Source: a virus
Lineage: Duplodnaviria > Heunggongvirae > Uroviricota > Caudoviricetes
IMG/VR virus record: IMGVR_UViG_2802429249_000003
Span: 1-22,963 of that record
Length of the DNA stretch: 22,963 nucleotides
Strand: one strand, 5' to 3'
Numbering within the stretch: position 1 is the stretch's first letter; each line of letters begins with the position of its first letter. A program made the position numbers. Below are positions 9,001 through 12,000 of this stretch, in pieces.

Positions 9001-12000
9001 CAGATGGAACTCAGTTATGACTTTCCTGAAAAATAAGGCATCATATAAAACTGCCTGCCTCATTGCACAACATGGAGATTCTTATCTTCATATAGCCAAC
9101 CTGTATTTGCGCAAAGCATATGGGAGATAAATAAATGAAAGAAAAACAACAGAACATAACACATAAAAAAGTAAGAGTGTTGCTAACCATTGAAAATGGT
9201 GAAGTAATTTACTCAAAACATCTGTTGGATAATGAATTCGTTGGCTGCATGGATACATTTCTGTGGATGGCAAAAAGAGCTGGCTACACGATTATTCCAC
9301 CAGCAAAGGAGCAAACATTATGAATAATTCAGAGTTCCGACCAGAAGTTACGCCACATGGCATAAAAATTGGCAATACAACCATTGATTATGTTGAGGCC
9401 GTACAGCGACTTAATAATGGTGAATACGATTATCCAAATTCACACGGTTTAAGAATCCTTCAGTGTCTTGCAGAAGCCGATGATGCCAGATTACTGGGAA
9501 GATTTTCAGTCGATATGAAAGTTACTCAATGGCGCTGGCTGTATGTGACGACGTTTATAAATGAAGAAGAAGGCAAGAACGGCACCATTGATATCCCTAA
9601 CGATGACGGAACTACAGATCGCGCAGTTATTTATAAGGGGAAGCATGGTTGCATGAGTATATACCCAGGACCACTTCGCATTGCCCTGCAAAACCATGTC
9701 GAATGGGGATTTATTGAAAAATATGGCGAAGCTGAAGGCATGGGGCGAGTTCTGTTTCTCTATCAAAATATGCTCATCGCAGATCCTGATAATGGTTTCA
9801 TTGTTTCTGCTATGGGGCGCGAAGGGCTTGAACTCCTTCTGGATGAAATGATTAACGACCTGAATACTCATGGTATGCCAGAAGCGCCAGTGACACATTA
9901 AATATTAAGAAGAAAATAATTCTTCCCGTTTTTTACTAACCGTTTATATGAAAAGCAACCGTGAATTAAACAGAGTAAAACTGATTTTAATCCTTGCCAC
10001 AGTGGTAACACTAACTGAAATTATTATTCTCTTTATTGCGCTGTCAGTCGGTTAAAAATATCGGGATACCACAGACCAATGAGACTGTATTTCACAATAG
10101 TAATTTTACTGGCAATTATCGCATGCATTTACGGATTACTCGTTCCGTTCCTTATATCCATGAAGGATACGATAGCAGTTATTTCTGGCTTTGCACTGGC
10201 GTTTTTGACCCCGCCCTGCATTTATGCCATTTACAAGGGTCTTTCTTTCACTAAGGATAAAAGATGAAAAAAATTATTTTTGCTTTAGCCATTGTTCTGC
10301 CGACTATTGGCCTCGTCGGTTGCGATCGCGTTGAACCAGGTAATGTTGGCATCAAGGTAAATAAACTGGGCGACGACAAAGGCGTCGGTGAGGTGGTCGG
10401 TGTTGGTCGCTACTGGACTGGCTGGAATACTGAAGTTTACATCTTCCCCACCTTCAAGCAAATGAAGACCTACGATGAACCGTTCAGTTTCCAGATGAGT
10501 GACGGTACAACCATCGGCTATCACATTGGCGTGGCCTACAAAGTTGATCCATCCAAAGTTACCACGGTGTTTCAGACCTACCGCAAAGGCGTGGATGACA
10601 TTACCGACACTGACCTGCGCCAGAAGATCGCCGACGCACTCAACCGACTGGCCAGCAAAATGACCACTGACAAATTTATCGACGGCGGCAAGTCTGAGCT
10701 GCTGGATGAAGCTCTTAAAGACATTCAGGCAGAGATGACACCTATCGGTATTCAGGTAATGAGCCTCTCATATGTAGGTAAGCCGGAGTACCCGTCAACC
10801 GTTATCGACAGCATTAATGCCAAAGTCACGGCGAACCAGAAAACACTGCAGCGCGAGCAGGAAGTTAAACAGCGCGAAGCGGAAGCCAACATGTTGCGCG
10901 CGGAAGCTGCCGGACAGGCTGATGCGATTCGCACAAAAGCCCAGGCCGAAGCCGATGCTATTCGTTTACGCGGTGAAGCTCTGCGCCAGAACCCCGGTGT
11001 TATGGAGCTGGAAGCCATCAATAAATGGAACGGCATACTGCCGCAATACATGACCAGCGGTGCTAATACACCATTTATCCAGGTTAAATAACTTATACGC
11101 CCGGCAGGCCGCCGGGCTAAGGGAAATGCAGATGAACACCCAGAATACTCAACCGCAAATAATGAACTATGCCCCGAATCTGACGTCATGCGGACGCATG
11201 GCAAAACAAACCGTTCGATTAACTTTCGGGCTATGGGAATACCGCGAAACATTCGAAGTCACTGTCGGCGGCAATCTGACCGGACTGGATGTTATCAGTT
11301 GCGCTATTGAAAGTCTGTACGCAACGCTGCCTTATGAAGAAGTCGAGGATGAGCGCGATATCATAGCCACCATTAATATCGGCGGACTGGAATGCAAGGA
11401 TGAAAACCTGTCCGGAGAGCTCTGGCTTGCCGGGATGCTTATCTCAGCAGAAATTATCAGTATTGAACCCGCTACAAACATACGGCTCTGAAGTTCTCAC
11501 TATTCAGAGAGCAGGAGAAAAAATGTTCGCTTTGATTAATCAGGGACAACTGTATACCGACAGTGCCGGTTACCCGGTAAAAATTATTCGCTGCATAAAT
11601 AACATCGTGTTGTACAGAAGAATGGATGGGCGAACACAGTCGGTAAAAATAAACGATTTTAATGAATCGTTTGAACGGATCGATCACCAGGAATACCGAC
11701 AAATTCTGGCAGAAACAGAGCAGGAAACTCATCTGAAGAAATTACGAGCCATGCAAAGGAAGTAAAGAATGAATAAAGCGTTTGAGCTATGGGTACGCCA
11801 GCGTTACGGCAATCGCTATGACCTGACGCGAGATGTTGACGGTTTCTACTGTCGTGAAATTGTGAAACGAATGTTTGAAGTGTGGTGCCACTGCCGTGGG
11901 CTGAATGTTGTATGAGGTGAACTGTGGGGCTGGATTGCGTACCTATATCAACCTACTGCCGCAACGCAGGAGAAACGGTTGATGCCGTTAACAAACGGAT

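Follow-up and report, generated by a model that had tools for sequence, protein, structure and literature searches.

We propose that a 35-codon open reading frame in an E. coli prophage, which we call ORF35, encodes a small membrane protein with a single helix that annotators have missed. It appears to be a real gene, though an orphan that is restricted to one lineage, and we hold this explanation with moderate confidence. ORF35 (9948..10055) is on the plus strand of the window, which is the whole stretch of 22,963 nucleotides of viral DNA that we analyzed. It runs from the ATG at 9948 to the TAA at 10053-10055 and encodes the peptide MKSNRELNRVKLILILATVVTLTEIIILFIALSVG. A first-pass annotation of this DNA had given exactly these coordinates and this sequence, and had compared ORF35 to a small membrane toxin or a leader peptide. 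The idea of a single-helix membrane peptide that was missed by annotation has moderate support from frame-specific conservation, coding potential, retention, and the slot that ORF35 occupies. The toxin and leader readings do not hold up: among the features that could be tested, ORF35 has no marks of either, and both are unsupported.

The peptide has a basic N-terminus (K2, R5, R9, and K11) and a hydrophobic segment of 24 residues, with Glu24 inside it. Upstream of the ATG at 9948 there are no other in-frame starts, and there is an in-frame TAA at 9906-9908. The hydrophobicity of ORF35 (KD19 = 2.81) is the highest of the 89 ATG-initiated ORFs of 30-60 amino acids in the window. Among the 1573 peptides from ATG ORFs of this size in all of the loci that we fetched, just 4 score as high as ORF35 or higher. 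Being in this 0.25% tail is evidence against the possibility that ORF35 is a non-functional chance ORF, that is, a T-rich run that is open in one frame within an A/T-rich spacer (the leaky hairpin and the poor ribosome-binding region of ORF62, both described below) at a recombination junction. We consider this explanation possible, if somewhat doubtful. In its favor, 7.2% of dinucleotide shuffles of the 177-nt gap contain an ATG-initiated ORF that is 35 codons or longer. (Such an ORF with a TM-like window arises in 0.56% of these shuffles.)

The prophage of E. coli that carries ORF35 is lambdoid (phiP27/Stx-like), and ORF35 is among the accessory genes of its early-left region. It is flanked by a phrog_1515 gene of unknown function on one side and by a conserved pair of genes, ORF62 and an SPFH lipoprotein, on the other. 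Prophages with this locus are present in 132 of 5426 complete E. coli genomes, or roughly 2%. ORF35 is part of a mosaic cassette of about 195 nt (9906..10100, plus strand; the right edge is approximate) that also includes a hairpin, a spacer, and the start of ORF62 (its ribosome-binding region plus ~7 codons). In other phages, exactly this stretch, 3' of the phrog_1515 gene, is swapped for a gene that encodes 92 amino acids (MANQNKINVF...). In that alternative cassette, ORF62 is preceded by a consensus AGGAGG and has another N-terminus (MNIYFRIV versus MRLYFTIV). The matches from E. coli form two sets, one of which is full-length while the other starts only at about 10088 of the window. AGGAGG is present 5' of ORF62 in both of the other classes of E. 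coli phages, which lack ORF35. Because the slot carries a gene in related phages, we count the cassette's structure in favor of ORF35 being a coding sequence. When we searched for repeats around the cassette, all that we found were short chance matches of A/T-rich sequence, and none of them resembled IS or att ends.

We found no homologs of ORF35 outside of its lineage. A phmmer search of 1.84 billion (1.84e9) representative proteins returned a single variant of ORF35 itself, and none of four peptide variants has an exact match among 15 billion proteins. Using tblastn against phages, the peptide matched phiP27 only (E = 5). There were no matches to ORF35 in Pfam, NCBIfam, or PHROG at E<=1, or in PADLOC at E<=0.1. 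When we scanned contigs with the SPFH protein as the query, we found loci in six other genera, none of which has ORF35; the same kind of scan with the gene upstream of ORF35 gave no matches. A metagenome scan that was anchored outside of ORF35 added one haplotype but no new peptide. Gene annotations also pass over it: PGAP annotates nothing at ORF35 in 60 of the 60 RefSeq genomes listed, and the phiP27 record has no annotation for it, but a variant of it is among the genes called by JGI/IMG. The lack of homologs beyond the lineage and PGAP's consistent silence fit a chance ORF. We did not find the peptide string in the literature, and topic searches found no work on the locus.

The first-pass annotation named a loss of the reading frame in related prophages as evidence that would count against ORF35. 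Instead, ORF35 is intact in 35 of the 37 unique haplotypes of the cassette (from 184 locus entries), although with such low divergence (at most about 10%) this comparison has low power and an intact ORF35 is expected anyway. Similarly, all 49 unique haplotypes of a 701-nt region contain the 108-nt ORF without an indel or a stop, and one of them has ATG changed to ATA; at the observed divergence, the chance of seeing no stop is about 0.5. This high chance is consistent with a chance ORF, as are the two disrupted haplotypes, each from a single genome. (One has the change from ATG to ATA and the other has a 1-nt deletion that leads to a stop at codon 14.) Among the haplotypes with full-length, ATG-initiated ORFs, there are 17 peptide variants, and all of the substitutions are conservative.

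The pattern of these substitutions does suggest selection on the peptide. We tested the Grantham sum of the changes against mutation spectra that were taken from the flanks or were strand-symmetrized. The sum is low for ORF35 in frame 0 only (P = 0.008, 0.013-0.016, and 0.0064 in repeat tests), with P = 0.41-0.98 for the other five frames. The controls behaved as they should: the positive controls ORF62 and SPFH gave P = 0.0009 and P = 0.0014, and the upstream spacer, a negative control, gave P = 0.21-0.64. A chance ORF is not expected to have conservative changes in frame 0 alone (P = 0.006-0.016 overall). Nor would it explain why, within ORF35, 11 of the 36 A's vary versus 0 of the 31 T's (Fisher 0.0005), but given the base-matched permutation null, our positive tests for constraint lean largely on this invariance of T, which we spotted post hoc. 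The asymmetry between A and T is not seen in the flanking regions, and 19 of the T's in ORF35 are at position 2 of codons for hydrophobic residues.

Other tests for constraint were neutral, as expected for a chance ORF. ORF35 does not have an excess of synonymous changes: there are 10 synonymous and 18 non-synonymous changes, versus 8.8 synonymous changes expected, and the ratio is indistinguishable from neutral (pN/pS = 0.55, p = 0.37). With a similar number of changes, the same test gave p = 0.015 for ORF62 and 5e-5 for SPFH. The scarcity of helix-breaking changes in ORF35 is not significant in a base-matched permutation (p = 0.2), and the counts by codon position alone (10/4/11) are not significant after matching for base composition (p = 0.28).

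Coding potential again argues against a chance ORF. We used a 3-periodic Markov model that was trained on 18 genes from the window. Among 102 ATG ORFs of 30-70 codons in the window, ORF35 ranks 2nd, and of the three that share the top four places with it, at least two correspond to annotated genes. The score of ORF35 is positive in frame 0 only (+6.7 bits, versus -6.5 to -27 in the other frames).

How ORF35 might be expressed is less obvious. The first-pass annotation had mentioned the lack of a clear Shine-Dalgarno sequence, and the truth is starker: the 20 nt 5' of the ATG do not pair with the 16S tail at all (+1.2 kcal/mol). By this measure, 97% of the ATGs in the window match or beat ORF35, which places it among the worst 3%. 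The genes that adjoin ORF35 have scores of -4.1 to -7.9 kcal/mol. This absence is also in line with a chance ORF. We did not find a convincing promoter of ORF35's own; the candidate is a promoter-like match (9/12) at 9890-9917, and it is weaker in the majority haplotype. There is no structured 5' leader either, as shuffles of the 199-nt region fold just as well (z = -0.84).

Just upstream, at 9909..9934 on the plus strand, is what had been described as a weak terminator. There is a hairpin at 9909-9925 (6 bp with 2 GC pairs; -4.3 kcal/mol), followed by a U-run, CCCGUUUUUU, but our terminator scan did not call it, so it is a leaky terminator at most. Across 17 haplotypes of the hairpin, its energy ranges from -0.7 to -4.9 kcal/mol, there are no compensatory changes, and the U-run is interrupted in some. 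Such a weak and poorly conserved hairpin would not stop read-through.

Downstream of ORF35 is a genuine operon for membrane proteins, as the first-pass annotation had it. ORF62 (10079..10267, plus strand) is a 62-amino-acid membrane protein with two helices (phrog_1130, E = 2.5e-23) and is the partner of the SPFH protein. PGAP does annotate it. The start codon of the SPFH/Band 7 lipoprotein (10264..11091, plus strand; PF01145, 8.8e-31; phrog_200, 1.3e-112) overlaps the stop codon of ORF62 (ATGA), and its translation includes the lipobox LVGC. ORFs of 51-68 amino acids are found directly 5' of SPFH in Salmonella, Pantoea, Kluyvera, Lelliottia, and Symbiopectobacterium. Neither ORF62 nor SPFH matched a defense system in PADLOC.

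ORF35 and ORF62 are separated by a spacer of 23 nt (10056..10078, plus strand) without a well-placed Shine-Dalgarno sequence for ORF62: the pairing is by GGGA (-4.1 kcal/mol), at about 11 nt from the ATG. This raises the possibility that ORF35 acts mainly in cis, with its translation, rather than its peptide, delivering or unmasking ribosomes for ORF62. By swapping the ribosome-binding site of ORF62, the cassette replaced the AGGAGG of the other two classes with this poorly spaced site, and yet ORF62 remains under purifying selection in the carriers of the cassette (pN/pS = 0.26). Also, the gap is constant at 23 nt: across 49 haplotypes, it varies at 4 sites and never by an indel. But without a Shine-Dalgarno sequence, ORF35 would be a poor loader of ribosomes, and no structure sequesters the start of ORF62. 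Furthermore, 23 nt is long for classical translational coupling, and a purely cis function would not require any constraint on the chemistry of the peptide. We think that a mainly cis role is quite unlikely. (We also considered a -1 frameshift that would fuse ORF35 to ORF62. Although the frame of ORF62 is already open at 10019 and beyond, we rejected this for want of a slippery heptamer.)

The same spacer bears on the suggestion that ORF35 is a leader peptide. In this scenario, ORF35 would be part of an attenuator for ORF62-SPFH, and its Ile and Leu codons would sense the supply of charged tRNA. ORF35 does lie upstream of an operon and is rich in Ile, Leu, and Val, like ilv-type leaders. However, the anatomy already contradicts this reading: the only hairpin precedes ORF35, and the 23 nt between ORF35 and ORF62 contain no terminator or alternative pairing. 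The genes downstream are not for amino acid biosynthesis, and the ORF62-SPFH operons of other genera and of two other classes of E. coli phages do without ORF35. We find an attenuator hardly credible.

The other early suggestion was a type I toxin. ORF35 would then damage the membrane and would be held in check by an RNA from the minus strand, which would run from about 10012 to the shared hairpin at about 9900 and cover the start codon, an arrangement like that of Ibs/Sib or SymE/SymR. At 35 amino acids and hydrophobic, ORF35 has the size and shape of such toxins (membrane-active peptides of less than about 60 amino acids). Its charged end is N-terminal, however, and in many type I toxins, but not all, the charged end is C-terminal. 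We found no matches to toxin families in Pfam or NCBIfam (Hok, Ldr, TisB, Ibs, ShoB, Fst, ZorO, DinQ, and others) and only noise among antitoxins and sRNAs in Rfam (E<=10). ORF35 also lacks its own promoter, a structured leader, and a fold that would sequester a Shine-Dalgarno sequence. The sole hint of an antisense transcript is a pair of putative promoter-like hexamers on the minus strand (CTGACA-16-AATAAT; 10020..10047), which match at 10/12 positions in the window and at 9/12 in most haplotypes. But promoter-like sites are no more common here than in shuffles (3 found versus 4.3 +/- 1.8 expected). The -10 element is AATGAT in 26 of 37 haplotypes and its T6 is lost in one, and the partial conservation of the site is confounded with that of ORF35. 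On the minus strand, the hairpin is more stable (-7.1 kcal/mol, z = -3.8), but its U-tract there is poor, and several haplotypes reach only -1.7 kcal/mol. Nor does the putative antisense RNA fold significantly (z = -1.16). We judge a type I system to be very improbable, and ORF35 is a cautionary example: a hydrophobic shape by itself is not proof of a type I toxin.

If ORF35 is instead a small membrane protein, then we infer the following about its transcription, translation, topology, partner, and coupling. ORF35 is carried on a cassette that swaps into the early-left operon, among the accessory genes (from the repressor side towards xis-int), in phiP27/Stx-type lambdoid prophages of E. coli. 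RNA polymerase would read through the weak hairpin 5' of ORF35, which would thus be part of a long early transcript. Its translation would begin without a Shine-Dalgarno sequence, at a start region (AUG AAA) that is rich in A/U and has little structure. The product would be a 35-residue, single-pass peptide of the inner membrane, with its basic N-terminus in the cytoplasm and its hydrophobic C-terminal helix across the membrane. After insertion, selection would maintain its hydrophobicity, its basic N-terminal residues, and the buried Glu24. Glu24 is predicted to lie on a face that is made up of small residues (A17, T21, E24, A31, and G35), which suggests that the helix contacts the helix of a partner. 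As partners, the nearest candidates are the co-transcribed ORF62/SPFH module or a membrane protein of the host. The cassette also swaps the strong ribosome-binding site of ORF62 for a poor one, so ribosomes that translate ORF35 may additionally make it easier to reach ORF62, 23 nt further on.

A more specific version is that ORF35 is a recently born transmembrane micro-protein, either de novo or extremely fast-evolving, that arose from the T-rich spacer of the cassette and is already under selection. It might be a modulatory subunit of the prophage's ORF62/SPFH membrane module, or it might be a membrane-active peptide that is checked by an antisense RNA, with the hairpin working in both directions. 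We consider this version unlikely.

If ORF35 is translated, then phiP27-like and Stx2-converting prophages have one more membrane peptide in their early region, which annotation lacks. ORF35 would also clearly exemplify a hydrophobic micro-gene, without known relatives, that lies exactly on a mosaic junction, and it adjoins a conserved but uncharacterized SPFH membrane module. The practical consequences are modest: ORF35 is a candidate for small-protein annotation.

Several known systems resemble ORF35 in part. Vakirlis et al. 2020 reportedly described membrane micro-proteins in yeast that arose de novo from thymine-rich non-coding DNA. Similarly, ORF35 is an orphan in a spacer that is rich in A/T, and it owes its TM helix to the abundance of T at second codon positions; it has no homologs anywhere and shows weak but detectable constraint. 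However, ORF35 is in a bacterial phage, and no non-coding ancestor has turned up for it, so its de novo origin is hypothetical.

Another comparison is to the NfeD-SPFH operons ybbJ-qmcA and yqiJ-yqiK, in which the gene for a small membrane protein is directly upstream of the SPFH gene and is translationally linked to it. In our locus, the position of the small partner is filled by ORF62, not by ORF35, which is a third, non-conserved gene 5' of the pair. (Neither ORF35 nor ORF62 matches NfeD in Pfam.)

The location of ORF35 recalls the exo-xis region of lambda and Stx phages, which is also a mosaic: it belongs to the accessory genes of the early-left region, lies 5' of xis-int, and is filled with short genes whose function is unknown (PMC4195576). 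But the exo-xis ORFs (orf60a, orf61, orf63, orf73, ea8.5, and ea22) are soluble and are conserved among lambdoid phages (PMC4195576), while ORF35 is hydrophobic and is confined to one lineage.

ORF35 resembles the toxins of Ibs/Sib, ShoB/OhsC, and SymE/SymR, type I systems whose antisense RNAs overlap fully, in being a short hydrophobic peptide with a conceivable antisense transcript across its start codon. Unlike those systems, ORF35 is not stand-alone but lies inside a long phage operon, and it comes without a family or Rfam match, its own promoter, or a leader. Its putative antisense promoter and terminator match the consensus only weakly.

Finally, small single-pass proteins of the inner membrane include AcrZ, MgtS, and YohP-type proteins. 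ORF35 has no sequence relationship to these; it is also prophage-borne and lacks a Shine-Dalgarno sequence. Nevertheless, it shares the general form of enterobacterial small inner-membrane proteins, which have under 50 amino acids, one hydrophobic helix, and a charged end on one side (PMC12648545). These proteins came to light in sORF and Ribo-seq studies; annotation usually misses them, and they often act by binding a larger membrane protein (PMC12648545).

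The hydrophobic ORF that we call ORF35 runs on the plus strand from an ATG at 9948 to a TAA at 10053-10055, and its 35 codons encode MKSNRELNRVKLILILATVVTLTEIIILFIALSVG, exactly as in the first-pass annotation. The ATG at 9948 is its only possible start because there is an in-frame TAA at 9906-9908 and no other start codon. ORF35 had also been described as unannotated, and indeed no feature is annotated there in SE11 or phiP27, and the 60 listed RefSeq genomes have none either. Four variants of the peptide had no exact match in a collection of 15 billion proteins. Among 1.84 billion representative proteins, the one match was a 35-amino-acid variant of ORF35 itself, unnamed and called once by JGI/IMG. 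ORF35 had no match in Pfam, NCBIfam, PHROGs, PADLOC, or Rfam. The best reading, which we give about an even chance, is that ORF35 is a genuine orphan gene for a peptide that spans the inner membrane once.

The window is a lambdoid prophage. Genes for a DnaB-like helicase, a DnaC-like loader, and O-like proteins are on the minus strand, and a CI-type repressor (S24 peptidase and HTH; 7323-8054) is followed on the plus strand by an early-left operon that extends to the excisionase and integrase (11924-13260). ORF35 belongs to the operon's accessory part, downstream of a 193-amino-acid gene of unknown function (phrog_1515). Just downstream is ORF62 (10079-10267; phrog_1130), which encodes a 62-amino-acid protein with two membrane helices; the next gene, for an SPFH/Band 7 lipoprotein (10264-11091), has a start that overlaps the ORF62 stop, so the membrane-protein operon that had been proposed there is present. 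The nearest relatives are phage phiP27 (96.6%) and eleven Stx2-converting phages (95.7%), and 132 of the 5426 complete E. coli genomes have related prophages. (The phiP27 GenBank record leaves ORF62 unannotated. In phiP27 and Stx2 phage records the SPFH gene is a "putative serine protease," although all that can be detected in it is a Band_7 domain and a lipobox.) Directly downstream of the repressor, an HTH protein (8158-8574) matches the PADLOC regulator models RmrA, capH, and HTH_VI (best E = 2e-9) and could regulate a prophage-borne defence or exclusion function. At the other end, tyrosine integrases are in tandem (12061-13260 and 13587-14864). The second is P4-type (Arm-DNA-bind_3), begins about 330 nt past the prophage integrase, and is followed by a 932-amino-acid protein with AAA_22 and a SEC-C motif (15134-17932), so a second island may be integrated right next to the prophage.

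The region just upstream of ORF62 is mosaic. The E. coli matches form two groups, full-length or beginning only at ~10088. In the alignment, there are three states 5' of ORF62: the ORF35 segment, a 92-amino-acid gene (MANQNKINVF...) that directly follows the same phrog_1515 gene, or unrelated genes. From these states, the exchanged unit extends from ~9906 (just past the upstream stop) to ~10100 (about codon 7 of ORF62). In both alternative states, ORF62 has a different N-terminus (MNIYFRIV) and a consensus AGGAGG is present. Compared to related loci L006, L007, and L052, the swap at 10056-10105 replaces the AGGAGG and changes ORF62 over its first ~7 codons, from MNIYFRIV to MRLYFTIV. Because the swap replaces the AGGAGG site, the ribosome-binding region of ORF62 is much poorer in cassette carriers (-4.1 kcal/mol, badly spaced). 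ORF62 is nonetheless under purifying selection in these carriers. ORF35 might act mainly in cis, as an upstream ORF whose translation eases ribosome access to the Shine-Dalgarno-poor ORF62, but we consider this improbable. A related phage with the 92-amino-acid cassette (L046) has an unannotated-looking 27-codon hydrophobic ORF (MLDSFALVALVGILALFLVTSGNWRHK; 3910-3993 of that locus) further down the same accessory region.

ORF62-like and SPFH genes are kept as a pair in Salmonella, Pantoea, Kluyvera, Lelliottia, and Symbiopectobacterium, and in none of these five genera is ORF35 ahead of the pair. Judging from this gene order, ORF35 is outside the conserved SPFH module. In these prophage-like regions (L210-L216), a 51-68-amino-acid ORF, whose homology to ORF62 is unscored, precedes the SPFH lipoprotein gene; the start/stop overlap is seen in the window, Salmonella, Pantoea, and Lelliottia, and the Symbiopectobacterium small ORF appears to be interrupted by an in-frame stop. 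Two contigs look mislabelled or like contaminants: L214, titled Yersinia pestis NCTC5923, is near-identical to two Kluyvera loci (L212 and L213), and L217, a 399-bp Rhizobium wenxiniae contig, has an enterobacterial-type SPFH fragment (83%).

How might ORF35 be expressed? It had been said to have no clear Shine-Dalgarno, and its pairing with the 16S tail (+1.2 kcal/mol) is worse than for 97% of ATGs in the window (neighbouring genes: -4.1 to -7.9 kcal/mol). Initiation without a Shine-Dalgarno is possible, since the sequence around the start is rich in A and U and has little structure (-4.9 kcal/mol over 63 nt). The hairpin at 9909-9925, previously described as a weak terminator, is indeed weak (-4.3 kcal/mol; -0.7 to -4.9 across haplotypes). 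It has no compensatory changes across haplotypes, and its U-run is interrupted in some of them. Because of this weak hairpin, the mRNA likely arises by read-through from the early operon. (On the minus strand, 9903-9936 forms a more stable hairpin, of -7.1 kcal/mol (z = -3.8, 0/200 shuffles as good), versus -4.3 on the plus strand; only a broken U-tract follows it there.) Promoter-like matches on the plus strand (9890-9917, 9/12) and the minus strand (10047-10020, 10/12) are not more frequent than in shuffles, and neither strand folds beyond shuffled sequence (z = -0.84 and -1.16). The first-pass annotation had suggested a small membrane peptide, akin to a type I toxin or a leader peptide. The first part stands as our best reading, and the shape of the peptide would suit the other two, but every other testable feature fails for both. 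A type I toxin is very unlikely, and a leader peptide extremely so.

A serious rival, although with well under an even chance, is that ORF35 arose by chance in the spacer at a recombination junction. When the 177-nt gap is dinucleotide-shuffled, 7.2% of the shuffles contain an ORF that begins with ATG and has 35 or more codons, and in 0.56% such an ORF includes a TM-like window. Among the 89 ATG ORFs of 30-60 amino acids in the window, ORF35 ranks first in hydrophobicity, and only 4/1573 distinct peptides of this size from all fetched loci reach its value. We trained a 3-periodic second-order Markov model with 18 long genes from the window and scored 102 ATG ORFs with 30-70 codons; ORF35 came second, and of the three others in the top four, at least two match annotated genes. 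Its score is positive only in its own frame (+6.7 bits versus -6.5 to -27).

We also compared haplotypes from E. coli genomes, IMG/VR, and metagenomes (first 49 unique haplotypes of 701 nt, then 37 unique haplotypes of the cassette, drawn from 184 locus entries). ORF35 has no indel or stop in 49/49 and is intact in 35/37. Divergence is at most ~10%, with P(no stop) ~0.5, so the open frame alone means little. Each knock-out is in a single genome: ATG to ATA in IMG/VR contig 2737471857_000010 (L051/L104/L152), and the loss of 1 nt from a T4 run in E. coli TUM9812 (L237), giving a stop at codon 14. Both may be assembly errors (for TUM9812, a homopolymer error cannot be excluded), but they could act as natural controls. 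Classical measures give only a weak sign of selection. Codon positions 1, 2, and 3 have 10, 4, and 11 variable sites; pN/pS is 0.55 (ORF62, 0.26; SPFH, 0.07; upstream gene, 0.24); and there is no synonymous excess (10/28 changes, p = 0.37, base-matched permutation), while ORF62 (p = 0.015) and SPFH (p = 5e-5) pass at similar counts. The type of substitution, by contrast, shows a strong bias: all of the replacements are conservative (I/L/V/F, A/V/T, N/S/D, E/D, G/S). Across the 49 haplotypes, 0/31 T sites are variable versus 11/36 A sites (Fisher 0.0005), with no such asymmetry in four flanking segments. Using mutation spectra from quasi-neutral flanking sites, or strand-symmetrised, frame 0 alone has a low Grantham sum of observed changes (P = 0.008 and 0.013-0.016; 0.0064 with an extended set), a signal that is partly post hoc and becomes ~0.04-0.1 once corrected for six frames. 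The other five frames give P = 0.41-0.98, and the controls behave as expected (positive: ORF62 0.0009, SPFH 0.0014; negative: upstream spacer 0.21-0.64). This is moderate evidence for frame- and strand-specific selection on the hydrophobic character of the peptide.

If ORF35 is a membrane peptide, then by the positive-inside rule its N-terminus would be inside (K2, R5, R9, and K11 are invariant). Because the helix has an invariant buried Glu24, flanked on one face by small residues (A17, T21, A31, and G35), we suggest that it may contact another helix, perhaps in the co-transcribed ORF62/SPFH module or in a host protein. It is unlikely, but conceivable, that ORF35 is a TM micro-gene recently born from T-rich spacer DNA, or part of a cassette-borne toxin/antisense pair.

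The layout of the small ORF and the SPFH gene resembles the NfeD-SPFH arrangement, but without an NfeD domain. ORF35 itself shares its class of position with the exo-xis region of lambda, which is known for small genes with unassigned function (PMC4195576), and it would be, at most, a new and lineage-restricted addition to a well-known class, the small membrane proteins that escape annotation.
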